DNA of 64,000 bases from Octopus vulgaris (taxonomy: Eukaryota), in NCBI GenBank assembly GCA_951406725.2, contig OX597816.1:80910001-80974000 (forward strand), written 5' to 3'. A program made the translations under genes and the position numbers. The notes beneath the pieces were generated by a model. That model was not told the DNA's origin and made no database searches. It worked only from the letters and a program-made list of their open reading frames with translations. Shown in pieces: positions 3,222 through 58,160 of this stretch. Positions within the stretch are counted from its first letter, which is position 1, and the number at the start of each line of letters is the position of its first letter.

Positions 3222-3717
3222 CTTTTCTACTGTAGGCACAACGCCTGAAATTTGGGGCCAAGGATTATGTCGATTACATCGACCCCGAAACGATGAAACT
3301 CAGAACGTAACGATGGAAGATATGCAGATAATTATTTTCAGGATCTGAAAATATGGGAGTGGAGATAAGGCGATTACATCGACCTCAGTACTCAACTGGT
3401 ACTTATATTATCGATTCCGAAAGGATGAAAGGCAAAGTCGCCCTCGGCAGAATTTGAATTCAGAACATAGCGGCAGACGAAATACCTATTTCTTTACTAC
3501 CCACAAGGGGCTAAGCACAGAGAGGACAAACAAGGTCAGATAAACGGATTCAGCTGATTATATCGACCCCAGTGCGTAACTGGTACTTATTTAATCGACC
3601 TCGAAAGGATGAAAGGCAAAGTCGACCACGGCGGAATTTGAACTCAGAACATAGTGGCAGACGAAATACCACTTGGCATTTTGCCCGGCGTGCTAACGAT
3701 TCAGCCAGTTCGTCGGT
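3221..3717 (-). mobile_element. Tandem/nested fragments of tRNA-derived SINE family B (Meta-SINE-like core)
   Basis: Repeated atcgacccc..actggtactta..atcgac..gaaaggatgaaaggcaaagtcg..ggaatttgaactcagaac. Minus strand shows a B-box-like gagttcaaattcc. Flanked by (AAT)n on both sides. Confidence 0.85.
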
Positions 3718-3733
3718 TTACATAATAATGATG

Positions 3734-3799
<66 letters not shown>

Positions 3800-10386: not shown

Positions 10387-10606
10387 GGAGTAAAGATTGT
10401 TTGCCAACATAAAATGGCAGTCCTGATTTAGGACGAATGTTGCTTTTCAAACAAGGGAATCTAACACCCCCACCCTTGTTCGAAACTATAAGGACACAAA
10501 CCGTGCCGTATAGCCAGCTGAAGACGATGTCTCCTGGGGCTAAATTACAGCAACATTCGTCCTAAACCAGGACTGCCATGTTATGCTGGCAAACAATCTT
10601 TACTCC
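10387..10606. mobile_element. MITE-like fold-back element with 58-bp inverted arms
   Basis: 10387-10444 is the reverse complement of 10549-10606 with 3 mismatches. The 104-bp interior contains further hairpins. No obvious TSD. Confidence 0.75.
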
Positions 10607-12394: not shown

Positions 12395-13170
12395 TAATAT
12401 TTTACTTCTAACAACTTCTGTTCTTCGACACCTACACTAAATTTCTGAACCATTTCCAAGAATATTGGATTCTACAATCAATAATTTCGTTGCAAGGCTC
12501 TTTCTCTTTCTTTTCCTCTCTCTTTCTCTCTCTTTCTCTCCCTTCCACACTCTCTCTCCCCATCTTCTTTCTTTCTGTCTCTCTCTCTCTCTCTAGGAAC
12601 AAATAAAATAAAATTCATATAAAATAATACTTGTTTTGTTATCTTTTTTTTTAAGAGAAGGATTTCTCTACACCACCCCTCATTTTCCTCCTCTTTTTTT
12701 ATGATTTAAGATCCAATATCACATTTGAATAGTATCGAAATTATATGAATTATCAATAGCAGAAGGTAGTTATTCAAAATGAAAAGAGAAATTACATATT
12801 AAGCTTTTGAATGTGTGATTTAAGTGTGATTTAGGAAGATATTTTATAGAATTGTCTCTTTTTTCCCTCCTTTTCTATAATTTATTTTGTGAGAGGATTA
12901 AATATTAAAATATTTTCTTTAAAATATTTCCAACGCATTTCAAATTTTTTTGTTTGCTTGTTGTGATTTTGCACCTCTCTTTTTTTCTGTTTTTTGTTTG
13001 TTTGTTTGTTTTTTTTTGTTTTTTTTTAAAACCTTAATTGAATCCATGGGCGATTGATTGTATGATTGTAAAAATTTAAACGTCAAGAATGTCGGGGTTG
13101 GCTGGTTCAGTCTTTGTATTTTCGCTTAGTAATAAATAAATAAATATAATATAATATAATAATAATAATA

Positions 13171-13370
13171 ATCTTTTCTAATATAGGCACAATGCCTGAA
13201 ATTTGCTGGGAGGGTGTTAGTCGACTACATTGACCCCCGGAGCTCTACTGGTATTTATTTTATTGACCCCGGATGAAAGCAAAGTCAGCATCGGTGGTAT
13301 TTTGAACTCTGAACGTTATGACAGAAGAAATGTCGCTGAAAATCTTGACTGGAAACTAGCGATTCTGCCT
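13171..13370 (-). mobile_element. SINE family B copy (diverged)
   Basis: taggcacaa.gcctgaaattt..gtcgac..gacccc..gatgaaagcaaagtc..tgaactc.gaac..gattctgcc, lying between AAT tracts. Confidence 0.8.
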
Positions 13371-13510
13371 TTACAATAGTAATAATGATGATGACGATAA
13401 TAATAATAATAATGACGATCACGATAATAATAATGATGATGATCACGAACAACAACAACAATAATAATAATAATAATAATTATAATAATAATAATAATAA
13501 TAATAATAAA

Positions 13511-15598
13511 GCTCTTACGGATGCAAAGATCAACTGCTAATCAATCGTATGATCCTTGAGAACTGTCACAAGCGCAGAAATCTCAGCACCGCATGGATTG
13601 ACTATAAAAAGGCCTTCGACAGTATACCGCATCCATGGATCTTGAGATCGCTGGACATCTTCAAAATTTCCCCTGTGATTTCAAACTTCCTGAAGCACAA
13701 TATGTCGTTGTGGAATACGAATCTCCAATTATACCACTCTAATGGAGTACTTGCCTCAGAAAATATAAACATCAACTGTGGAATTTTTCAAGGTGACTCA
13801 CTTTCACCTTTAATATTCTGCATAGCCCTAATACCCCTTACAAGTGAATTAAACAGAACAGGGTATGGGTATAAAATTGCCAATAAAAAATAAGCCATCT
13901 ATTTTATATGGATGACTTAAAACTTTATGGTAAAGACAATAATGAACTTGAAGGCCTATTGCGCACTGTGAAAGCATTCAGCGATGACATCGGGATGGAG
14001 TTTGGACTTGAGAAGTGTGCCAAGGCCACTTTCCAGAAAGGGAAAGTGAAGACCACAAATTCAGTCGTGTTAGATGTTGACACAGTCATAAGAGAGCTTG
14101 AGCAAGGGATAAATGAAGGCTCTGGTATTCAGCATGCAAGCATGAAAGAGAAGATCAGGAAGGAATGTTATAGGAGAGTTCGTGCAATCCTGAAATCTGA
14201 ACTAAATGCACGTAACAAGGTGTTAGCTATAAATTCCTTAGCAGTTCCAGTTGTTACTTATAGCTACAATGTGTTGAACTGGAATATGAGTGAAGTAAAG
14301 AATATAGATAGGAAAATACGCAAGCTGCTGAGTTGTAATAGGATGCACCACCCAAAGGCAGACGTAGATCGCCTTTACCTTCCCAGAGCCCAAGGAGGTC
14401 GAGGCCTGATCCAATTTGAACTAGCTTACAAAACAACCACAATTGGACTGGCCAAATATCTCGAAATATCGAATGACTGGATGCTAAAGCTCGTGGAAAA
14501 TCACGAGAGACGAAAGAAGCTTCATTCTATCATAAAGGAAAGCAAAAAATTTGCTATTGATCTCGTGCAGGATACCCAAACTGAACAACCCGAGGGAAGT
14601 ACGGCAACTATTGTTGCAAAGAAGGTGAAAATAATGGCAACGAAAAAAGCGCACGAGCAATTGGCTGATAGGTGGGAGGAGAAACCTCTGCACGGCAAAT
14701 ATGTTGCCCGTAGCAAACAAGCTGATGTTGACCAGAAGCAAACCCATCAGTGGCTACGGAGCTCAGGGCTAAAAGCAGAGAGCGAAGGTTTCATCCTGGC
14801 TGCTCAAGATCAAAGCCTATTAACCCGGAACTACCAGGCCAATGTGATGAAAAATGGAGCAGACCCAAAATGCCGATTCTGCAACGACATGATTGAAACA
14901 GTGGACCACCTAATCTCTGGATGTAAAGTCTTAGCACCAGTGGAGTATAAATTAAGACATGACAGAGTAGGCCAATATCTACACTGGCTAATAAGTCGGC
15001 ATTACAATATCAAAACTACCAAGTGGTATAATCACCACCCTGAGGCTGTAACTGAAGGAGAAAATGTAACCATTCTGTGGGACTTTCCAGTACATACAGA
15101 CCGAACCATCAAGGCCAATAAACCAGATATTGTTGTGAAAGACCAAAACAATAAAGTTTGCTTATTGATCGACATGAGCATCCCCTATGATCATAATATC
15201 TCAGCGAAAGAGTTTGACAAGCTCAGAAAATATAAAGACCTACTCATTGAAATTGAGAAAATGTGGCATTTCAAGGCGGTTACAATACCAGTGATCGTAG
15301 GAGCACTAGGAATGATCAAGAAGGGAACCGAAAATTATATGAGAATGATCCCTGGCTTACCATCCCTGCAAGAAGTGCAAAAGATTGTCTTAACTGGTAC
15401 ATCACACGTATTGAGAAGAGCATTGTCGATGTGAGAACTGTTACTGCTCATGTATTTTAATTTAACTTAAAAAAAAAAAATGAACGAACTATTGAGTTTG
15501 GTTTAATGGCCTACCAATGTATACTATGAGTTTCTTTGCCCTAGGAGTCGGGAAGACACTCGGCATGAAATGGAAGCAAATTTGAAAGAAGAAAAAAA

Positions 15599-15600
<2 letters not shown>
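13511..15600 (+). mobile_element. R4/Dong-clade non-LTR retrotransposon, 5'-truncated, inserted in (AAT)n
   Basis: (AAT)n on both sides (about 13461-13508 and 15601-15630). Coding sequence starts abruptly inside the RT. About 165-bp 3' UTR. Dong elements are established TAA-repeat-specific R4-clade elements. Confidence 0.93.
13513..15434 (+). pseudogene. Reverse transcriptase + CCHC zinc knuckle + restriction-like endonuclease (RLE) ORF, 5'-truncated, one frameshift
   Basis: Motifs WIDYKKAFDS, GIFQGDSLSPL, (HLF)YMDDLKLY, LYLPRAQGGRGL, CRFC..ETVDHLISGC, RHD, KPDIVV..LIDMSIP, KLRKY. The two track ORFs (13549-13893 and 13908-15434) join if one A is added in the A-run near 13885-13890. Confidence 0.93.
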
Positions 15601-15632
<32 letters not shown>

Positions 15633-15805
15633 GGAGATGTACTTGCATAGAAAGTGACCTGATCTGAGATCGTGTGCTGGATCAATTGCAGCGTGGAAGG
15701 TGTTTATAAGTCATTTAAGAAACACAAAATAACCGTTAGATTCACTTCAACATTTAAATTTAATTTGTCGAAATATTTTCGTCGCTTTGAGACCGCGACC
15801 TGTTC
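15633..15805 (-). mobile_element. Truncated copy of a small repeat carrying a hammerhead-like fold (same family as 35747-35945)
   Basis: Highly similar to 35747-35924 (ggagatgtact.gcatag..gatctgagatcgtgtgctg..aattgcagcgtggaaggtgtttataag..aaatattttcgtcgct..ccgcgacctgttc). Confidence 0.85.
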
Positions 15806-15807
15806 CC

Positions 15808-17968
15808 GTTGTGTTTGCATCCAATAAGTCCCACCCCTATTTTTCTTGGTAAATACAGTCTGTCTGTGTCCCCTCTTGGGTGGAGTGACTCATATCTAGT
15901 TAGCAATTTCCCGTTTAAGCTATTTCAGCTGTTTAGTTCGCCTACTATCCATGCGATTACCCCTTCTCCATATCTAACGAGTGAAAACGCGCAGGTGTTG
16001 ATAGCTTCGATCTTATTCCGTCAATTTAATTTCGACTTAAGGATCAGTCTCAGTCTGCGCAAGTACTCCACCTTGAATTTTTCTGTCATTTCTTTCTCCA
16101 TCAATTTATCCATTTCAAGTATCCCCAAGTACTTATAGCCCGTCTCTTCTAACTGCTTCATAACTTCCCTCGACGGTATCGTTAGCCCGTCCATTCATTT
16201 GATTTTGCCTCTCTTCAAGATTAACACACCACACTTTCTCAGTCCGAACTCCATTCTGATGTCAGCACTGAAGGTATACACCGTATCAACGAGGGAACTA
16301 ACTTAGGCTTCATCTTTCCCATAAAGTTTGAGGTCATCCATCAATAACAAAATAATTGACTTTTTGCTGGCGGCTTTTGAATACATACTTGGCTTTTGCT
16401 TTTTTTTGATGTTTTTCAGACACAGCACTGTTCAACCCAATGTCAACCACTCTGGTGTTCCTTGGTCGGCATTTAACAAGGTGTTGAGTTGCTGTTCGTG
16501 AATGACATTCACCAAATCTTTTGATCCAGTAGCCTTGAACCCCATCTGGTCCCGGAACCTTCCAGTTGCTCATTTTTTTGCTGATTTCCTTCATTTCCCT
16601 AACTGGAATGACTAGTTCTGCCTGTTTTGGACAGACTACTGTTTGTTTCAGTTCTTGCAACCATTCAGCATCCTTCTTGCGCTCCTATCGTTGCTCCAGA
16701 TGTCACTCCAAAAGCTTTGACTTTCAATGTTATCTGGTATCAACTTTTCATCTGTATATTCTCCATTTATTTCTTTATAGAATCTCTTCTGATCTACTCT
16801 GAATAACCTATTCTGGTGGTAACCCTTCATTCTTTGGTCGTATCTTACCATCTTTGCTTTCTTTGCAACGAGGCGCTGTTTCAGTTCCTCCACTACTACT
16901 TTCAGGACCTTTTTTTTTCAATATTATACTTCTTTTTCAGCGCCCTGTATTTTTGTTCGCTTTTAAGCTCCCCTTTCTCTTTTCGGTCTAACACAGAGAT
17001 TTCCTTTGAGAGCATCTAACCCTGTCTGGATTCTTCTTTTCCACCATGGATCTTTACTTTTGTCACCCCCATTATGTTTCTTTTTTCTTGACATCAACAC
17101 CCACGTTTTCTGCTACAACAATACTTGCTGCCTTGATCAAATTATTTGTTTCTGTTATGTTTGTTCTGATGTATTTCAGAATTTCATTGACATTTTTCGT
17201 TTCTTGGTTCAATTTCCATCGATCAACCTTTTAAAAGTTGCAAATAATATCGCTATCGTTCTCCTATAGTCTTGCCTTTATTCTGTCGTAGATTGCCTTT
17301 TGTTCACCTGTCATGTCACCATTAGTTTTATTGTCTTCTTTTGGATCATCTATATGTCTCTCATCAAGTAAACTACCACTGCTCCTTTCCTGTGCTATGG
17401 GATTACTCTTATTAGTAAGAACTGTATTTTCATTGTTATCTCTGCTGATATTTTCCATGACCCGTCTTTTGATAGCTTCAAGCTCTACTTCTGTGAACCA
17501 ACAATTTTTCCTTATTGCTCTAGCTTGATCACATAGTCTCTGTTTCATGAGTTGAAACAATCCCTTTTCCCTCCAATGATCATACATACGTTGTCGGTAA
17601 CCCCTAATTTAAGCACCATTTTCATCTACCGAGTTGCTCAGGTAGTAACACTCCATGACCACAACATTAATTTGCTTGCTCCATCTAAGCCGTGTGTGGT
17701 TGTCCCTTTCTGGATATCTGGAGCCGGACCAGATTCTCTGAGCCTACCGGGTGTAACGTTGTCACCAGCATTGGCTTCAGTTTCATTACCACCATTATTC
17801 ACAATATTTTGTTTTTTCATTGTCACTCATATGAGGAAGCGATTATCAGGTTCCGCAATTACCGGTGTTTTTATTGTGACACCATCACTAGATGTATCAT
17901 TAATCAGCTCATAAGGAGGAAGCTCCACCCGTTTCCTTTCAGTATAAGTGGGATTTCCCCATGATTTT
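15808..17968 (-). mobile_element. Older R4/Dong-like element: 5' end present, RT internally deleted, 3' truncated
   Basis: Minus-strand pieces read MYDHWREKGLF..QRLCDQARAIRKN.WFTEVELE (R4-type N-terminus), [68 protein letters not shown]. Many stops and frameshifts. The 5' end abuts an AAT/GAT tract at about 17970. Confidence 0.9.
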
Positions 17969-18984: not shown

Positions 18985-19209
18985 CTGGCCGAAATCAGAT
19001 CGCCATGTTGATTCGTTAGCTACTGCACGCATTTTTTTCTCTCTCTCTTTCTGTGTTTTTTTTCTCTCTGTGTATCTTTCTGTTGAAGAGCGCAGGCTCG
19101 AAACGTTAAAGATTTTTTTTATTTATATTTCCTGAGCGCCATACTAATACAATTGTTCGTTTGTTTTCCACCTGCCTTCGTCTTTTGTCTGTTTTCATAA
19201 AGCTTCCCG

Positions 19210-19210
<1 letters not shown>
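18985..19210 (+). mobile_element. Small repeat with hammerhead-like fold ending at (TA)n (Penelope pLTR-like; same family as 35575-35744)
   Basis: Shares tttct.ttgaagagcg.aggct.gaa.cgt.aaag..actaatac..tgtt with 35575-35744. Ends at a TA tract. Confidence 0.7.
19074..19113 (+). ncRNA. Minimal type I hammerhead-like motif with variant core
   Basis: Stem I atcttt/aaagat, core CUGUUGAA, stem II GAGC-gcag-GCUC, GAAA, palindromic ACGU stem III, GUU triplet. A6 is replaced by U. Confidence 0.55.
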
Positions 19211-21329: not shown

Positions 21330-21537
21330 TTTCAAATTATAGCACAAGGTCAGCACTTTTGGCGGAGTGAATAAATCGATTACATCTACCCCAGTGCTCA
21401 GTTGCTGCTTATTTTATCGACCGTGAAAGGCTGAAAGGCAAAGTCGACATCACTGGATTTGAACTGAGAACGTAAAACGGGCAAAATACCTCTAGGCATT
21501 TTGCACGGTGCTCTAACGATTCAGCCATCTCGCCACG
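21330..21537 (-). mobile_element. SINE family B copy
   Basis: gcacaagg.cagca..tcgattacatc.accccagtgctca..tttatcgacc..gaaaggc.gaaaggcaaagtcgac..ttgaactgagaacg..ctaacgattc.gcca.ctcgcc. Confidence 0.85.
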
Positions 21538-32679: not shown

Positions 32680-35574
32680 CCTTTAAAACTGTCCTCTCTC
32701 TTCATGCCTTCAAAATAAATCAGTACCCACAAATTTTTAGCACTCAACAAAACACAAATAGCATTGCTACCTCAATATTGTTATTTCTATCTACAAAGCC
32801 ATCCAAGGCTGTATCCACAGAAAGTATAAGTGACTGTTGGCATAAAACCAACACGCTCAAGGCTCCATTCCGCACACGTTTTGCATCCTTTCTGCATTTC
32901 CTATTCCTACTCTAACGCTTAATAGTTTCTGCTTGCCATCTTCAGACAGGCACTCCCGAATCACCCATTCACCCTCTCTCATCACTCATGTTGTATCCTC
33001 ATACAAATTAGTACACCTAGCCTTGCTTCCCCAACAACGCCGATTTTGGAGATGTATGTGCTTTCCATGCAGCTATCGACTTGCAACAGTTGAAGTAAAC
33101 TTTTAACATAAATAGTTTGGCCTCACAAAATCTGTGTCCCCTTAATCCAGATCCGGGAAGTCATTATTACATGTATGTGCGCTCATATTAAGGGTGTTGT
33201 TATAACGAACAGGAGTTCAAAGTATGAGGTGTATAGGAGGTAAGGAGAATAAATTATATTTATTCGGCTGACGTCTTATGCTGCTAATTGGAGTTACGGT
33301 TTCTTGTGCAGTTTATGAGAAATAGGGATCTATTAAATAAAAACTTAAAAAAAAAAAACATTTGCCCAAATTGTCATACAATGGGATCCAACCCAGGATC
33401 TCGTGAGGGCAAATCAAACAATAACATGTGTGAGTCGGTGCGCTCGCACAAACACATACACACACACAAAGAGTATAAACACACAGCTTATATATGTGTG
33501 TGTTTGAGTTCGCACATATATATTAATGTATATAAATACATAAGCACCCTCCATATATGTGTGCATGTGTATATGTACATATATGCATGCAAAGAATATG
33601 TGCATGAGGCACACTTATTTTTGCTTGTATATACGAATGTAATTTAACAGAGTGCATGTGATTATACCGAACGTACGGCATACGTTTATGTTCATATTAT
33701 TGTATATATTCACAAATACACACACACACATACACACCTCTCAGGAGCAATCATACAATTGTCTATACATCTCTTTATGTATGAAAGCGTGTTTATTTGT
33801 CATAAGATATTTTCTGCCATTTTCTATTTCAAGTGAATAAAATGCTCCCATCTGAGCTAAGCTGAGCTTTAAAATTTAGAGTGAAAGAAAATATTTGACT
33901 GAATAGCAGAAGATTAAATTTCTTCAACAGAAGATATAAGAATTAATCCAACATCGAGCAGCAGCTTTTTGATTTTCTTCAAATTCTCTATTGATTTGAT
34001 CAAATTACTCCCTCACTATCAAATCCATTCGATCTCACTGTGAAAAAAAAATTCTGCCTTTCTCCCTCTCCTTTGCCTAAAACTGAAAGTAATCCAAATT
34101 TTGATACATTTATTTTTGTAGTGCGTATTCTCGTTCCGTTTGTTAGTTTGGGGAAAAAATTTAACTATTTTATTCTATTTTATTTCATTATATTTTTATT
34201 CTATTTGTTTTACGATTTTAATTTTCACAATTTTTTTTAAAATGAAAACTGCCAAATCGTGCTTGTATCTTGGTGCCGATATTTTTTCTCCGTCTTTAAT
34301 CTAATTTTTTAAATCTGTGTTTTATGTACATTTCCTTTGATTTGTTTTTCTTAATTTTTTTTTTTCCAGTGGGGTTGAGTTTAAGTGAAATGAGTAGTGG
34401 AAAACCACTGTTCGGCAACTTAGAAAATAATTATTGTGTCTCTCCGTTTCAAATTTTCTCTTAATAAGTTCGTAAGTCCTCCGTTACAGCATAAATACAA
34501 CCGAGGGAGGAGGAGAGAAATGAAATAACAAAAATAGAAGGTAACTAGGAACGGAAAAAATGTAAAAAGGAAGAGTGAACGTAAACGAGAAAAAGAAAGA
34601 AAGGAAAGAGAAAGGAATAAAAATATATTAGAAAGAAAGAAGGAAAAAGAAAGTGAAAAAAAAAAGAGAAGAAAATGATATAGCGTAATCTTGGGCTTAT
34701 CACTGAGATTAAGCAGATATTTCTACGATGTCAGTGCAGAAAAATCTGGTGTTATAGCTTGTCATAGTATCGTTCTGATGTGAGATTTGGTAATCGAGCG
34801 AAAAATAGTTAGACTAAACAGAAGGCGAACGATGAAGGGCTAGAGGGGTGATGGTGGTGGTGGTGGAAGATGAGGAGGAGGAGGAGGAAATATAATACTG
34901 CAACAATAACGATAACATCAAAAACAATAACAGCAAACAAGAGAAAAAAGAACAGCAGGGAACAGGGGGATTCTATTAGCTGCAAGTAATAAAAGTCATT
35001 AAACTATTCCCCTCATTAAAGGTTCCGCTACCATATAATGCTATAAGACATATTTGTCCTCCACCTAAGCCTATACAATGTGACTACGATATAATTATCT
35101 TTCACTTTCGTTCCGTTCACTCTTACTTCTCCCTATATCAACTCTTTCTTTTCCCTTCTAAGTCTTTCTTTTCTTTTTAATTAATCATCTTCTCCCATCT
35201 CCCTACTCTTCCGCTTCTTTTTTCTTCTTTTACTGCCTCCGTCTTCTATCTGAAGATCACTGCTTAATATCAGTTTCCGTGAAACACCGATATACATACA
35301 CGCAAGCAGGCGCACGTGCACACTCACACACACACACACGCACAAATATAAATATATTTATATTGTACGCACGATGGTGTGTGTGTGTATAATTCATAAT
35401 CGTTCAATCTTATTTTCTAAGTACTTGGCCATGGCTTTTTCATGAACTTATTATTGCCTGGAATGTGTGTGAGTGTGTGTGTGTATGTGTGTGTGTAAGC
35501 TCGTAAGTTGATATATGTGTGTGTCTGTGTGCGTGTATCGCCATGATTGACCTCTAATTCCACAAGTTTGTTTT

Positions 35575-35744
35575 TTATTATTTTCTCTCTGTTTATTTCT
35601 TCGTGTTCCTTTCTATTGAAGAGCGTAGGCTGGAAGCGTAAAAGTCTTTCTCACCTTCCCGAGTGTCGAACTAATACACCTGCTTGTTGTTTATATACCT
35701 CTCTCCTGTCTACATCTCTGGTTTTTCTGTAAATTTCAAATATA
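35575..35744 (+). mobile_element. Degenerate second copy of the 18985-19210 repeat
   Basis: ctttctattgaagagcgtaggctggaagcgtaaaag (35609-35644) plus downstream similarity. Confidence 0.7.
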
Positions 35745-35746
35745 TA

Positions 35747-35941
35747 GGAGATGTACTCGCATAGCAAGTAATTTGATCTGAGATCGTGTGCTGAAACGAA
35801 AACAATTGCAGCGTGGAAGGTGTTTATAAGCCATTTAAGAAACACACAAAAGCCGTTCGATTCACTCCAACATTTAAGTTTAATTTGTCAAAATATTTTC
35901 GTCGCTAAAATCCGCGACCTGTTCACTGACAAAGTCCGTGC

Positions 35942-35945
<4 letters not shown>
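35747..35945 (-). mobile_element. Small TA-flanked repeat with hammerhead-like fold at 35884-35933
   Basis: Second copy at 15633-15805. Minus strand reads tttgtca-GTGAACAG-gtcgc..gcgac-GAAA-atattt-tgacaaa. Confidence 0.75.
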
Positions 35946-35976
<31 letters not shown>

Positions 35977-36301
35977 ACGCCCATATATGTATATGTATAT
36001 ATATATATATATGTATATATATATACACACACATATACACACATACATATATCATTTATTCTTCTATTTGTTTCAGTCATTTGACTGCGGCCATTCTGGA
36101 GTACCGGATTTTAGTCGAACAAATCGACCCTAGAACTTATTCCTTGTAAGCCTAGTACTTATTCTATCGGATATCTTTTGCCGAACTGCTAAATTACGGG
36201 GACGTAAACACACCAACATCTGTTGTCGAGCGATGCTTGCGGACAAACACAGAAACACACAAATTTACACACACGCACACACATACATATTATATATATA
36301 T

Positions 36302-36754
36302 ATCAGAAATATTAAACTTCTAAATGTCTCAAAGAGACATGAGCGGTGGTGGGGCGATAGAGTGGTTGTATACTGTCACGTTAAGTTGACAGTATACAAC
36401 CACTCTATCGCTCCACCACCGCTCATGCCTCTTTGAGACATTTAGAAATTTAACATTTCTGATTACGGTAACCAGTGAATAGATTTCACTATAAATATAT
36501 ATATTTGTGAAGGCTGGACATGCACCTCAATCAGCAGATCTCACTATCCTGGGCTGATGACGGGATAAGCCCCAGAAACATGCATGTCCTGAGGTGTGAA
36601 TCTTGGCTGGTAGGGATGCTTGCCTCCCCTTCACAAATATAAGGACACAGAAAATGTGTCAAAGCCGACAAGAAGCGTTCGATGCTTCCTAGGGCTAAAC
36701 AGCGGTGGTGTAATTCCCATACGGGACTGTCACGTTAAGTTGACAGTATACAAC

Positions 36755-36758
<4 letters not shown>
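36302..36758 (+). mobile_element. Retrozyme-like / non-autonomous Penelope-like element: 354-bp unit with 33-bp terminal direct repeat and 77-bp inverted 5' extension
   Basis: 36372-36404 is identical to 36726-36758. 36302-36378 is the reverse complement of 36387-36463 (4 mismatches). Internal hammerhead. (TA)n on both sides. Confidence 0.8.
36545..36597 (+). ncRNA. Type I hammerhead ribozyme
   Basis: CUGAUGA 36554-36560, stem II GGG/CCC, GAAA 36575-36578, palindromic stem III ACAUGCAUGU, GUC triplet (predicted cleavage after 36588), stem I ccuggg/cugagg with one mismatch. Confidence 0.8.
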
Positions 36759-36790
<32 letters not shown>

Positions 36791-36822
36791 TTTATTTTAA
36801 GCAGCAGAAAATTCAACAAAAT

Positions 36823-36860
36823 CTGTTACTCTGAGTTTCTCGTTGCCGTTCATCAGACAG
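36823..36860 (-). ncRNA. Minimal type I hammerhead ribozyme (mirror copy)
   Basis: Exact reverse complement of 36885-36922. Confidence 0.72.
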
Positions 36861-36884
36861 TTTTTGCTAGAATTCTAGCAAAAA

Positions 36885-36922
36885 CTGTCTGATGAACGGC
36901 AACGAGAAACTCAGAGTAACAG
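36885..36922 (+). ncRNA. Minimal type I hammerhead ribozyme
   Basis: Stem I cugu/acag, CUGAUGA 36889-36895, stem II CG-GCAA-CG, GAAA 36906-36909, stem III ACUC-a-GAGU, GUA triplet. Confidence 0.75.
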
Positions 36923-37024
36923 ATTTTGTTGAATTTTCTGCTGCTTAAAATAAAGCATATTACTCTACCACTGGTATTTGAGTACTCTTTTTTCCACCTT
37001 GTTTCACATTTATGTGTTTACTCC

Positions 37025-37059
<35 letters not shown>

Positions 37060-37499
37060 GGCGAGCTTCTTTCAGTTTCTGTCTACCAAATCGACTCACA
37101 AGCCTTTGGTCAGCCAGAGGCTATAGTAGAAGATACGTGCCCGGAACCATGTGGTTGCTAAGCAAGCTACTTACCACACAGCCACGCCGAATATGACGGA
37201 TTTAGTTCACTTGTGATCTAATCGAATAAGCAAGCTGAGTGCTATAGTTTGTCGACCGTTAGGTTCCAAGAACACAGCTAAGGTTGGATCTAGGGATCCG
37301 TATTAGGATATATAACTCAATGTCATGAAAAGAGGATATATTGTGCTAGGCACACAGTATTGGGAGAAGATAAATAGAATAGATACGGTAGCAATGCTCG
37401 TCTGCGATCATTTGTCTCCTAGATCAGAACTAAACTGGCTCTAAACATTAACTACAACAACAGTAACATAAATTATGGAATGAAGGAATGATAAATGAT

Positions 37500-43273: not shown

Positions 43274-43521
43274 ATGTATACTTTTAGAATTCATATACTT
43301 TTGTTTCTATATTTCTATATTTCTAATATATCAATATATGTTACAGATTGGACAATTCATATTTTCTTAAACCCGTATGTGTATGTGTTAATCGTAGTCT
43401 GCCTAATTTGAACCTTTCCTATTGTGTCTATTACACTTGCTTAGTGCTTCAGGTGCGACTTGAGTACTTCTACGCTATGTTTTTCGAAAGAAAATTATAA
43501 TCATATATATATATATATATA

Positions 43522-43929
43522 TTCTTTTTATTCTTTTATTTGTTTCAGTCATTTGACTGTAGCCATGCTGGAACACCGCTTTTAGTCGAGCCAATCGACC
43601 CCAGGAATTATTCTTTGTAAGCCTAGTACTTATTCTATCGGTCTCTTTTGCCAATCCGCTAAGTTACGGGGACGTAAACAAACCAGTATCGGTTGTGAAG
43701 CGATGTTGGGGGAACAAACACAGACACACAAGCATATACATATATATACATATATACATATATACGACGGGCTTCTTTCAGTTTCCGTCTACCAAATCCA
43801 CTCACAAGGCTTTGGTCGGCCCGAGGCTATAGTAGAAGACACTTGCCCAAGGTGCCACGCAGTGGGACTGAACCTGGAACCATGTGGTTCGTAAGCAAGC
43901 TACTTACCACACAGCCACTCTTACGCCTA
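43522..43929 (-). mobile_element. Near full-length tRNA-derived SINE family A
   Basis: Minus strand has A-box tggctgtgtgg, B-box ggttcagtccc, ccttgggcaagtg, an internal TA/CA tract, and a 3' end actgaaacaaataaaagaataaaaagaa. Confidence 0.92.
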
Positions 43930-44736: not shown

Positions 44737-45190
44737 CTAGTCGATTGCATCGACCCCAGTGTTTCACTGGAACCTAATTTATCGACCCCGAAAGTATGAA
44801 AAGCAAAGCCCTCGGCGGAATTTGTACTCAGAACGTAGCGACAGGCGAAATACCGCTAAGCATTTCGTCCGGCGTGCAAACGATTCTGCCAGCTCGACGC
44901 CTTGAAGATGATGATGATGATGATAATGGTTTCAAATTTTGACACAAGGCCAGCAATTTCGGTGGAACGGGTAAGTCAATTACATCGACCTCAGTGCTCA
45001 AATGGCAGTAATAAAATAAATACCATTTACTGACCGCGAATGGCATTAACAAAATAGATGCCATTAAATGACCTCGAAATGTCGAAAGCAAAGACAACTT
45101 CGTAGGAGTTTGAACTCAGAAAGTAAAGTCGGGCGAAACGCCGCTAACCATTTTAAACGGCTAGCTAACGATTCTCCTAGCTTGTCGCCT
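44737..45190 (-). mobile_element. Two adjacent SINE family B copies (about 44737-44902 and 44930-45190)
   Basis: Each has atcgacc.cagtg..gaaagcaaag..actcagaa.gt..ccgctaa.cattt..aacgattct...agct.g.cgcc. Confidence 0.85.
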
Positions 45191-46590: not shown

Positions 46591-46607
46591 AATATAAGAG
46601 AACATAT

Positions 46608-46798
46608 TTTTATTATAGCCACCATGCCTGAAATTTGGGGGTGTGGGTGGTTAGTTGATTACATTGACCCCAGTGTTCAAACTACTTATGTCATCGACCC
46701 CGAAATGATGAAACAAGGTCGATCTCGGCGACATTTGAACTCAGAACGTAGAGACAGATGAAATGCTGTTTAGCGTTTTGTTCGGCGCGCTAACGATT
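46608..46798 (-). mobile_element. SINE family B copy
   Basis: gcctgaaatttgggg..gattaca.tgaccccagtg..atcgaccccgaaa.gatgaaa..tttgaactcagaacg..gctaacgatt. Confidence 0.85.
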
Positions 46799-51691: not shown

Positions 51692-52916
<1,225 letters not shown>

Positions 52917-52965: not shown

Positions 52966-53206
52966 CAGGGTCCGGTGAATAAGCTGTCGTCTAAATTACG
53001 CAAAAATGAAAGTAACACTGACATCTGATTTTAACAGATATATTTACCAAGATTACATAAAAATATCTTGAAATAGTAGAGAGTAAATTCATTCAATAAA
53101 ATCGTCATGGGCTTCAACCACAGCCTCCAGACGACTTCGGAATCTCCTGCAACTATTCTGGGCAGTCTCCTTGTTTAAGTTGGTGAATGCTGCCGTAATC
53201 CTTGCC

Positions 53207-53288
<82 letters not shown>

Positions 53289-53670
53289 TATATATATCGC
53301 AGAAATTGTCTGATAGCCATGGCTGGGTTCTCCTGCTTGTTTGGCATGGTGCAGAGTCCTGCTGCCAGACATAGGATCTTCCAGGAACCTCCCTCTTGAC
53401 CCAGGGCAGTACTAGCTCCCCTAGGCACTTAATATCGGCCTCCGTGTTGAGTTTGAGGCTATGTGGGAACATGAATGGAGGCATAACGCTGCCATCACTA
53501 GTGAACACTCCAAACACCATGATGATTGGATGTTTGATTTTTATAACTCTCACTGCATGTCCTCAAATTGCACTTTCCTCAGATTGATACCCAACCACTC
53601 TGAAAAGTTCGTATTGGAGCTTCCGGTGCGATTGCCAAGCAGTACAGCATATCGTTTCCAAGTTATATAA

Positions 53671-55391: not shown

Positions 55392-55575
55392 TCGCCGGGC
55401 GAAACGTTTCACGACATTTCGTCCATCCTAATGTTCTGAGTTTAAATGCTGCCCAGGCCGGCTTTGCCCTACATCGTTTCGAGGTCAATAAAATAATAAC
55501 TAGTTGAGCACTGCGGTCGATGTAATCGACTTATCCCCTTCCCGGAACATGCTGGCCTTGTACCAAATTTTGAAG
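55392..55575 (+). mobile_element. SINE family B copy
   Basis: cgccgggcgaaa..gttctgagtttaaat..ctttgcc.t.catc.tttcg.ggtc.ataaa..ggtcgatgtaatcgact..ggccttgt.ccaaa.tttgaa. Confidence 0.8.
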
Positions 55576-56359
55576 TCAACATAGATATAAAGGCACAAGG
55601 CCGCATATGTGAAGAAGGGAAAAGAGTTGACTATAGAGGCATCTGTATGTAACTGGTACTTGTTTTTATCAACTTCAGAAAGATGAACAGTTAAATCGAA
55701 ATCACTTGAATTTAGAATATAAACAAACAGAACTAATTACCACATGGCCCCTGATCGAATCGAAATATACTTTCATCGCATATTATAACTTGAAGCAAAT
55801 AGGAGATAAATCTACATCGTCGTTAGCCAATCCCAAAGGATAGATCGCGAAAATCTTGCGTTAATCCACTGTAACAAGAGGTGAACTGAAGCAATAGAGA
55901 AAAAATAATGCAATCGCAAATATAAACAAGCGCTGGCGGTGCAGTTGAACTGATAATCGATGATAACTTACCCACCTGGATATACAACACCTACAGAAGA
56001 GGAAAAGAGACTAGACATTGCACGATGAGAAAATAACAAAGTGTGAAAGCCTCATAGCTCATTGACTCGAATTCTTATCTGTTTCGTCCTTACAGTTTAT
56101 AATTAATTACTCTGTCCTCCTGTTTCTGTTTCTTCACTTCTGTGAATTCCTTTCGGATATAATTATCATGACTCAGATCTTACCTGGGGATTACATTGGA
56201 GAGAATCGATATTATTAACATGACATGTGAAGACGATCATTTAAAAATTTGCTTTTCAACTGTTTAGCAGTACTTAGCCAGGAGTTATTTCATGCAGTTG
56301 GGAGGGTGAATTGGGAATAGACTTGGAATTAGAACAACCAGAGACACAAACAGAAACTC

Positions 56360-57365: not shown

Positions 57366-57964
57366 CTTGGTAAATGAAACTAATGAAAAACGATTCGAGA
57401 ATATTTTTCCGGTAGTTCAGCAATAAAATCAGTTTAAATTTCAGATTAATATCACTGGTTAAAAATCAGTTGCAGTCTCAGACATGATTGGAAGTTGTTT
57501 ATTGTAAATAGATCGATAAACGGGATGTAATATGTGACCAGTTTGGGAAAAACTAATTACAGGATTATATCGATTACAGGAACCAATCTCCTGCCACAGA
57601 TATCAAAAGAAAACATTTGTTTTTTATGCTATTTTATTGTTATTAATATTTTTTTCTATTACTCAACTAAAAATGAAATGTTTGCAAGTATCAAGCAATT
57701 GTATTGAGTAAAAGAAAAATGCATATCTACCAAGATATCTTATTCAACTTAATATTAGTTTCCTTTGAATCAGTACAAATACCTTATATTTTAGGAGGGA
57801 TAACGAAAAGAGTTGTGACATGCATGCCTTTCTCTTAGTGGCATATGTAAAGTGAAATCACTTCAACATGGAAATTTATCCACTTTGAAAGTACTCGTCA
57901 GTTTCACATTTCTAATGTTTAAAGCATGCAATTTACTTACAAATAAATGCGAGGCAATATTGCT

Positions 57965-58160
57965 TTCAAATTTTTGCACAAGGCTAGCAAGTTCTGGGGA
58001 AGGTTTAAATCAATTACATCGACCCCTGATCTCAACTGGTACTCATTTTATCGACCCCGAAAGAATGAAAGGTGAACTTTGAATTCAGAACGTATAGACG
58101 AGTGAAACGATGCGAAACATTTTACCCGGCGTGCTAACAATTCTGCCAGCCTACGGCCTT
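57965..58160 (-). mobile_element. SINE family B copy
   Basis: gcacaaggc.agcaa..attacatcgacccc..caactggtactcattttatcgaccccgaaagaatgaaagg..cccggcgtgctaac.attctgccagc. Confidence 0.85.

Follow-up and report, generated by a model that had tools for sequence, protein, structure and literature searches.

Hammerhead-bearing repeats clustered at (TA)n tracts in Octopus vulgaris: likely insertions of Penelope-like type, including a candidate retrozyme

We analysed a 64,000-nucleotide stretch of the Octopus vulgaris genome (assembly GCA_951406725.2, contig OX597816.1, forward-strand positions 80,910,001 to 80,974,000; hereafter the window, with positions counted from its first letter), in which small repeats carrying hammerhead ribozyme motifs are stacked at (TA)n tracts. 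The setting is microsatellite-rich animal DNA, with 131 tandem-repeat rows and a GC content of 0.20-0.41. Within the hotspot, element A (+) and element B (-) abut tail to tail at a 7-nt TA run, and the other end of element B adjoins the microsatellite at the 3' end of a short interspersed nuclear element (SINE; -, 37190-36032). Two insertions, U (36302-36757) and E (36790-37026), in turn interrupt the internal TA tract of the SINE and are separated by (TA)16. The features of the hotspot, followed by the second copies of elements A and B, are given below.

35539-35740 (+): element A, repeat of about 200 nt with a 3' end resembling that of a Penelope-like element (PLE); second copy 78% identical over the core; high summed depth in four runs
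35609-35644 (+): motif 1, decayed minimal type I hammerhead, predicted cut after 35640
35748-35944 (-): element B, repeat of about 200 nt with a PLE-like 3' end and TA runs at both ends; second copy 85% identical
35884-35933 (-): motif 2, type I hammerhead, predicted cut between 35891 and 35890; top descriptor match
35945-36052 (no strand): TA-rich microsatellite between element B and the SINE 3' end, from the tandem-repeat listing
36032-36290 (-): SINE 3' half, host of the nested insertions; 81% identical to 43502-43761
36302-36378 (-): inverted 5'-truncated arm of U, folded back at a native 7-bp hairpin; 77-nt arms with 4 mismatches, 8-nt asymmetric loop kept
36372-36725 (+): unit U, 354-nt head-to-tail monomer, 45% GC, one hammerhead, highly base-paired; 37-nt repeat at period 354
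36548-36594 (+): motif 3, type I hammerhead, predicted cut after 36588
36726-36762 (+): first 37 nt of a further copy of unit U, running up to (TA)16; 97% identical to 36372-36408
36758-36789 (no strand): (TA)16 separating insertions U and E, from the tandem-repeat listing
36785-36872 (-): inverted arm of element E, without the last 67 nt of the other arm; 88-nt arms with 1 mismatch
36823-36860 (-): motif 4, within the inverted arm of element E
36873-37026 (+): element E, 3' end resembling Hydra-clade PLEs, 67-nt one-sided tail ending at (TA)15
36885-36922 (+): motif 5 in element E, predicted cut after 36918
37027-37057 (no strand): (TA)15, rest of the SINE internal tract, from the tandem-repeat listing
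37028-37190 (-): SINE 5' half, tRNA-like head partly deleted in the local copy; 77-84% identical to three other copies; loose ends at 37140 and 37185
18998-19210 (+): second copy of element A with a better-kept motif (19075-19112), ending at a long TA tract
15633-15810 (-): second copy of element B, broken off inside the core (alignment 15633-15805), 3' end in the (TAA)n tail of a non-LTR (long terminal repeat) retrotransposon

We found all five hammerhead motifs of the preliminary description at the coordinates and on the strands it gave. A single palindrome holds motifs 4 and 5, one in each of its mirror-image arms, so that they represent one motif copied, and the independent motifs, and the insertions carrying them, number four. 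The canonical type I core (C3 U G A N G8 A ... GAAA ... UH, with stems I-III) is present in motifs 3, 4 and 5, and in motif 2 with a compensated swap of the 3-8 pair. A relaxed type I descriptor, composed after the motifs had been seen, gave 15 matches in the 64 kb. Five of these scored at least 13, compared with a mean of 0.35 such matches and a maximum of 1 in 20 local dinucleotide shuffles. Four of the five top matches lie in the hotspot (35926-, 36554+, 36856- and 36889+), and the remaining one, at 19080, belongs to the second copy of element A; motif 1 itself is too decayed for the scan. Rfam returned zero matches at the gathering score, and between 28 and 40 kb no hammerhead family was among the 133 matches at E<=10, which were hairpin and microsatellite matches only. 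Rfam models are expected to miss minimal PLE motifs. A motif-like string at 32945 (-) failed the descriptor and was taken as chance. With four of the six hammerhead insertions of the window lying in 1.5 kb, the clustering had a P value of 7e-4 (uniform placement; post hoc), and comparable clustering would be expected to recur many times in a gigabase genome.

Evidence at the family level came from the second copies within the 64 kb and from contigs of four public runs aligned to 35450-37350, covering 40 of 168 sequence differences, 15 of 489 joints and 32 of about 418,600 aligned pieces. Summed contig depth over the carriers was about 1e4 to 2.6e6 as against about 200 in the unique flank in run X1, a measure that marks repeats and gives no copy number. 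All carriers are high-copy repeats. Like this repeat nature, the motifs, boundaries, palindromes and TA adjacency, together with the 354-nt period and conserved fold of unit U, were seen directly.

The adjacency of the carriers to TA repeats that had been described was borne out, the distances to (TA)3 or longer being 0 nt for A, 2/1 nt for B, 0/1 nt for U and 1/1 nt for E. The 3' end of the second copy of element A lies 4 nt from TA as entered, and its alignment reaches the tract. Overall, five of the six insertions in the window end at most 4 nt from (TA)3 or longer, against a background in which 2.2% of non-tract positions lie within 3 nt of such a run (binomial P 3e-8, or 2e-5 at a generous 8% background; unblinded, as element ends were drawn with the TA positions known and four of the six insertions were picked by the finding itself). 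As a control, none of 20 rough, BLAST-defined ends of other repeat families lay within 3 nt of TA, leaving apart six SINE ends and one end of a long interspersed nuclear element.

We also confirmed that two carriers are nested in the internal TA tract of the SINE, whose halves match the unbroken copy at 43502-43918 with identities of 81% and 77%. ARAGORN detected no tRNA gene in the SINE 5' half. The SINE, which is abundant, is presumably of octopus type, a label that we used only to point to the literature. The further proposal that SINE microsatellites serve as landing pads was not borne out: two of the six insertions are nested in this way, both in one copy, and one of the four SINE copies with a visible internal tract has inserts. 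The SINE head abuts (TA)n at other loci as well (loose end 37185), and all these elements therefore seem simply to share TA targets. A joint 37185>36068, with 12-15 contigs in three runs, shows SINE copies in head-to-tail order; (TA)n usually flanks the SINE head.

The best-formed motif is motif 2 in element B, in which stems I and II fold unaided (z -3.2). It has a 7-8-bp stem I, a 5-bp stem II, a palindromic stem III, an extra nucleotide and a swap of the 3-8 pair to G3-C8. Both window copies of element B have C8, and the second copy (85% identical) ends before position 3. In runs X6 and X11, the four G>C places tallied were all accounted for at other sites, and therefore no reversion of position 8 reaches 10% in these runs, base coverage being indirect and position 3 lying outside what they can check. 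The substitution G8C alone has been reported to cut the rate about 1e5-fold, with partial rescue by C3G (PMC8495972; PMC11167929). Natural core variants described so far include U3-A8 and A6C (PMC3088659, PMC4209133), and G3-C8 has been described as a laboratory variant (PMC3884650). We found no natural G3-C8 in the literature searched, which did not cover key work on PLE hammerhead variants and some supplements that may already report it. Because a chance compensating change in a single copy is unlikely, we are fairly confident that the two copies reflect a G3-C8 pair common to the whole element B family.

Two further observations concern element B. A joint 37185>35868 (depth 960 in X1 and 226 in X3) places its hammerhead directly upstream of the SINE head at other loci; bridged by a short similar stretch, this is a possible ribozyme-SINE chimera. 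The tail hosting the second copy belongs to the 3' part of a non-LTR retrotransposon at 13510-15631 (+), which encodes a reverse transcriptase (RT) and a zinc knuckle (Pfam) and ends in (TAA)n. Its C-terminal motif suggests that it is R4/Dong-like. A protein search with the retrotransposon open reading frame (ORF) of the window found relatives of marine-invertebrate type.

Motif 1 in element A has an extra nucleotide after A9 and no loop III. Majority bases in the four public runs restore its stem II and GAAA (35615 A>G, 35632 G>C, 35636 G>A). The core is non-canonical, with U at position 6 (A6U) in both window copies of element A, and the family core as a whole appears to carry A6U. Judging from the related change A6C, A6U probably weakens or kills the element A ribozyme.

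Element E consists of a 154-nt stretch preceded by a shorter inverted copy of itself, the two forming a palindrome of 88-nt arms with a single mismatch and no spacer. In copies at other loci, an inverted piece is joined to the same element E start at 36873-4 (2 contigs). Compared by eye with the hammerhead of Hydra-2_Amil, motif 5 is identical in stem I, core, stem III arms and cut-site base, and a similar hairpin lies farther 3' (unaligned); stem II of element E is only 2 bp in the local copy. An AG stands just before the extended stem I (36873-36879), recalling the Drosophila virilis Penelope, in which an intron end lies next to helix I (PMC4209133).

Motif 3 does not belong to a short piece with TA on either side: its carrier is an insertion of 456 nt (36302-36757) with a 354-nt unit as its basis, and the short TA run at 36494-36503 lies within this unit. 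Motif 3 has a 6-bp stem I, a 4-bp stem II and a 10-nt palindromic stem III (self-duplex -13.3 kcal/mol). Of the three pair-breaking changes in the local copy, majority bases at 36565, 36570 and 36591 repair stems II and I. Contigs of all four runs join 36718 back to 36371/2, and the downstream part of the unit therefore runs into its upstream part elsewhere. In addition, a contig of run X11 (depth 44.1; unique flank 4.7) crosses 36455-36611 without a gap, with 7 differences, and carries majority bases (36521, 36565). It therefore represents a further copy in which both the junction and the TA length are unchanged, and was used as evidence of such a copy, not of expression.

The fold of unit U reached a z score of -6.3, linear or circular. 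Among 60 control tiles, seven reached -6; six of them hold 43-326 TA-run bases and one the fold-back palindrome, whereas unit U holds 10. Of the 13 listed majority bases within the unit, nine repair a pair, one keeps a G.U pair and three are unpaired. Together they stabilise it by 24.5 kcal/mol, as against +3.2 +/- 5.2 kcal/mol for random sets, and none of 150 sets of the same type was as good. One hairpin repaired by majority bases extends to 36493, about 5 nt before the next helix. The hammerhead conformation lies 2.7 kcal/mol above the minimum. Overall, unit U is a non-coding, highly self-paired 354-nt monomer with one type I hammerhead, within the range of about 170-400 nt for retrozymes. 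We rate it as probably a non-LTR retrozyme, and the insertion fits such a retrozyme inserted with a PLE-type inverted arm.

Contig depth climbs about 15-fold in about 40 nt on the 3' side of the motif 3 cut site (36589-36640), from either stalling of reverse transcription at the base of the long rod or copies ending near the cut. We rejected a reading of 36500-36640 as a miniature inverted-repeat transposable element (MITE) with terminal inverted repeats, because the segment forms an RNA rod within unit U and has a majority change compatible with G.U pairing.

We consider it likely that four independent insertions piled up in the hotspot, each produced at AT-rich DNA by target-primed reverse transcription of the PLE type. 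The traits on which this draws, namely the insertion signatures and the (TA)n preference of PLEs, are taken from the literature. Among the traits of PLEs, Craig et al. 2021 (PMC8557442) describe truncation at the 5' end, a tail on one side only and an inverted copy that is itself 5'-truncated. According to the same source, 26 of 27 Hydra-clade PLE families list a (TA)n preference, including Hydra-1_Obim of Octopus bimaculoides, with hammerheads near the 3' end; from the values listed there, we computed motif positions 87-425 nt from the consensus end. Elements A, B and E look like 5'-truncated 3' ends of PLEs. The distance from hammerhead to 3' end is about 100 and 105 nt in the two copies of A, 143 nt in the hotspot copy of B and 108 nt in E, within the PLE range of about 100-200 nt. 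An inverted 5'-truncated copy with a one-sided tail is present in E and U and was not seen for A or B. The mirror-hammerhead layout has been reported for Penelope-13_HM (PMC8557442), and opposite-strand hammerhead pairs 100-700 bp apart have also been described (PMC4209133). PLEs insert into or beside older copies (review, PMC6765202), and a purified PLE cuts both strands of AT-rich DNA, with two start sites defining the tail (Frangieh et al. 2024, PMC11167929). Hammerhead cleavage was dispensable for PLE insertion in vitro in that work (PMC11167929). A repeat annotation of O. vulgaris counts 31 recently active Penelope-like families, and its main text uses neither "hammerhead" nor "ribozyme" (PMC13282606).

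For the mechanism we infer the enzyme, the order of events, cleavage and circularity. A GIY-YIG endonuclease/reverse transcriptase would cut (TA)n and prime cDNA near the RNA 3' end, and most copies would end after 150-450 nt. PLE hammerheads sit about 100-200 nt from the 3' end, so nearly all such stubs would retain one; A, B and E may be stubs of this kind. In E and U, a shorter inverted copy would have been added on the 5' side, either by cDNA fold-back at a native palindrome or hairpin or by two-strand priming from offset starts, and this would account for mirror hammerheads and for a tail on a single side. U would be a non-coding 354-nt unit copied by like machinery from tandem or circular RNA, that is, a non-LTR retrozyme. 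TA is left on both sides of each insertion, and the tract would therefore stay a target.

Several results weigh against this reading. The Pfam scan of 100 window ORFs, drawn mostly from a list of 462 and including 59 of 90 between 30 and 42 kb, gave no PLE domain, so PLE membership rests on non-coding traits. Five pattern scans of viral, metagenome and prokaryote collections found no related loci. No motif here matches the Hydra-1_Obim hammerhead, and motifs 1, 3 and 5 fail to fold as hammerheads unaided in the local copy. Outside the hotspot, the TA association can be judged only on the second copies of A and B, one of which is at TA and the other, that of B, in (TAA)n; the knowledge of TA sites when ends were drawn and the roughness of the control ends count here too. 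The summed depth of unit U is uneven, at about 1e4 over the hammerhead and 3-5e5 downstream (about 30-fold); complete monomers would therefore be a minority, or the hammerhead part varies. The locus holds 1.1 units, with no dimer carrying two hammerheads, and no contig spans two hammerheads. The helices of unit U form in linear order too, its 45% GC is at the stated retrozyme limit, and eight of nine predicted Xenopus retrozyme dimers were reported uncleaved in vitro (bioRxiv 10.64898/2026.07.22.740005).

The preliminary description had proposed a guild of non-autonomous ribozyme-bearing retroelements sharing one (TA)n-targeting enzyme. Of this, the hammerhead-bearing repeats and their 3' ends at (TA)n stand, with PLE machinery as the best candidate, and the guild as such was largely known already. 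That all four carriers are dedicated non-autonomous elements of one such enzyme, with a preference for SINE-borne microsatellites, seems unlikely to us. The carriers are indeed short, very abundant and non-coding in their visible part, both copies of A reach a similar 5' motif, E is joined at an identical 5' position elsewhere (36873-4, 2 contigs), and non-autonomous PLE derivatives are known (PMC8557442; bioRxiv 10.64898/2026.07.22.740005). However, 5' truncation alone yields such stubs, and A, B and E are equally well or better read as truncated ordinary PLEs, leaving the non-coding and periodic 354-nt unit U as the only candidate for a non-autonomous carrier. The carriers have no common terminal sequence and show two hammerhead architectures, a minimal type (A, B), which follows the motif defined by Cervera and de la Pena 2014 (PMC4209133), and a Hydra-like type (U, E). 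With no ORF linkable to them, a single shared enzyme was not borne out, and the nesting in one SINE copy (two of the six insertions) does not amount to a preference.

For U, a reading as the structured 3' end of an ordinary PLE, its order produced by two adjacent insertions of that family, is doubtful. In its favour, the motif would then sit about 255 nt from the 3' end, inside the PLE range, PLEs do insert beside their own copies (PMC6765202), the depth drops steeply toward the hammerhead part, and every helix can also form linearly. The contig of run X11 argues against it, being another copy with the same junction and TA length (36455-36611), as does the majority-repaired hairpin, which reaches 36493 and leaves about 5 nt to the next helix. 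A reading of the palindromes as DNA elements of MITE type, or as fold-back artefacts, with TA target duplications and a hammerhead likeness that is accidental or the relic of a dead ribozyme, appears very improbable. In its favour, Tc1/mariner MITEs typically have TA flanks and inverted repeats, and Rfam gave no hammerhead match. A6U and several private changes would impair cleavage (PMC3088659 for A6C). The arms, however, stop at different points of a longer family sequence, unlike terminal inverted repeats; the repairs by majority bases are RNA-like, one keeping a G.U pair; the descriptor matches exceed those of shuffles; and motif 5 closely resembles a published PLE hammerhead.

Compared to known systems, the carriers agree with Hydra-clade PLEs (PMC8557442) in (TA)n insertion, a type I hammerhead close to the 3' end, a 5'-truncated copy in inverted orientation, a 3-4-bp palindromic stem III and a frequent mismatch at the stem II base. 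The closest likeness is between motif 5 and Hydra-2_Amil, a (TA)n-targeting member of this clade, the two being nearly identical outside stem II (by eye), and the unpaired bases on either side of stem II in motif 3 recur in PLE-X1_cBra (PMC8557442). Unlike those families, the carriers showed no linked RT/GIY-YIG ORF among the 100 window ORFs scanned, and element E has a tail of 67 nt as against 30-40 nt and a 2-bp stem II in the local copy. Minimal metazoan PLE hammerheads in print (PMC4209133; also Perreault et al. 2011, PMC3088659) include U3-A8 and A6C, whereas here we find G3-C8 in B and A6U in A. Cephalopod Naiad PLEs share the (TA)n preference, inverted copies and tails, but are described as having no canonical hammerheads (PMC8557442), and are therefore unlikely parents of the carriers.

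Unit U resembles the non-LTR retrozymes of metazoans (Cervera and de la Pena 2020, PMC7229834; Li et al. 2026) in being non-coding and about 350 nt long, in carrying a single type I hammerhead whose helices measure 6 bp and 4 bp, and in its heavy self-pairing, head-to-tail junctions and a ribozyme fold accessible in the predicted circle. Mussel retrozymes measure 350-390 nt (PMC7229834), and Li et al. 2026 derived non-LTR retrozymes from PLE ends (bioRxiv 10.64898/2026.07.22.740005). In contrast to these, U comprises 1.1 units with a PLE-type inverted arm in (TA)n instead of a tandem array. Our literature searches found no example of a cephalopod retrozyme, one of which may be reported in supplements outside the search.

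Hammerhead-bearing, (TA)n-targeting PLEs and clustered PLE insertion are already in print, and for PLEs in a genome rich in TA the hotspot itself is ordinary behaviour. What the analysis adds is the candidate retrozyme with PLE insertion marks, together with a hammerhead that is probably G3-C8 throughout its family. More tentatively, and short of an even chance, the genome may carry a 354-nt circular-RNA retrozyme with PLE-specific marks (an inverted 5' arm, offset 3' ends and a (TA)n target), a very high-copy PLE-type family with a naturally fixed G3-C8 that still cleaves, and another family with a fixed, crippling A6U. If true, this would be a direct genomic signature of PLE enzymes mobilising animal retrozymes, an association argued so far from co-occurrence and homology (PMC7229834; bioRxiv 10.64898/2026.07.22.740005). 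A retrozyme family inserting with marks found only in PLEs would make the question testable through junction counts. A 3-8 pair kept via a double change would imply selection for catalysis, and the A6U family that catalysis can be lost; side by side, the two would form a natural test of what PLE hammerheads do. Standard descriptors with a fixed C3-G8 would overlook the G3-C8 family.

Elsewhere in the window, a 220-nt element at 10387-10606 has 58-bp inverted arms (95%), is not TA-flanked and contains hammerhead-like words with no valid motif by eye. A further abundant short repeat family was seen at seven sites (3361-3786, 13127-13443, 21330-21532, 44738-45190, 46607-46798, 55393-55582 and 57957-58150), several copies of which adjoin three-base repeats such as (AAT)n and (GAT)n rather than (TA)n. 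About 1.1 kb of near-pure (TA)n at 51694-52782 has no recognisable insertion. At 53089-53562, a transposase-like fragment with no Pfam match, presumably Tc1/mariner-like, is broken by (TA)44, which suggests that TA tracts arise inside coding repeats too.

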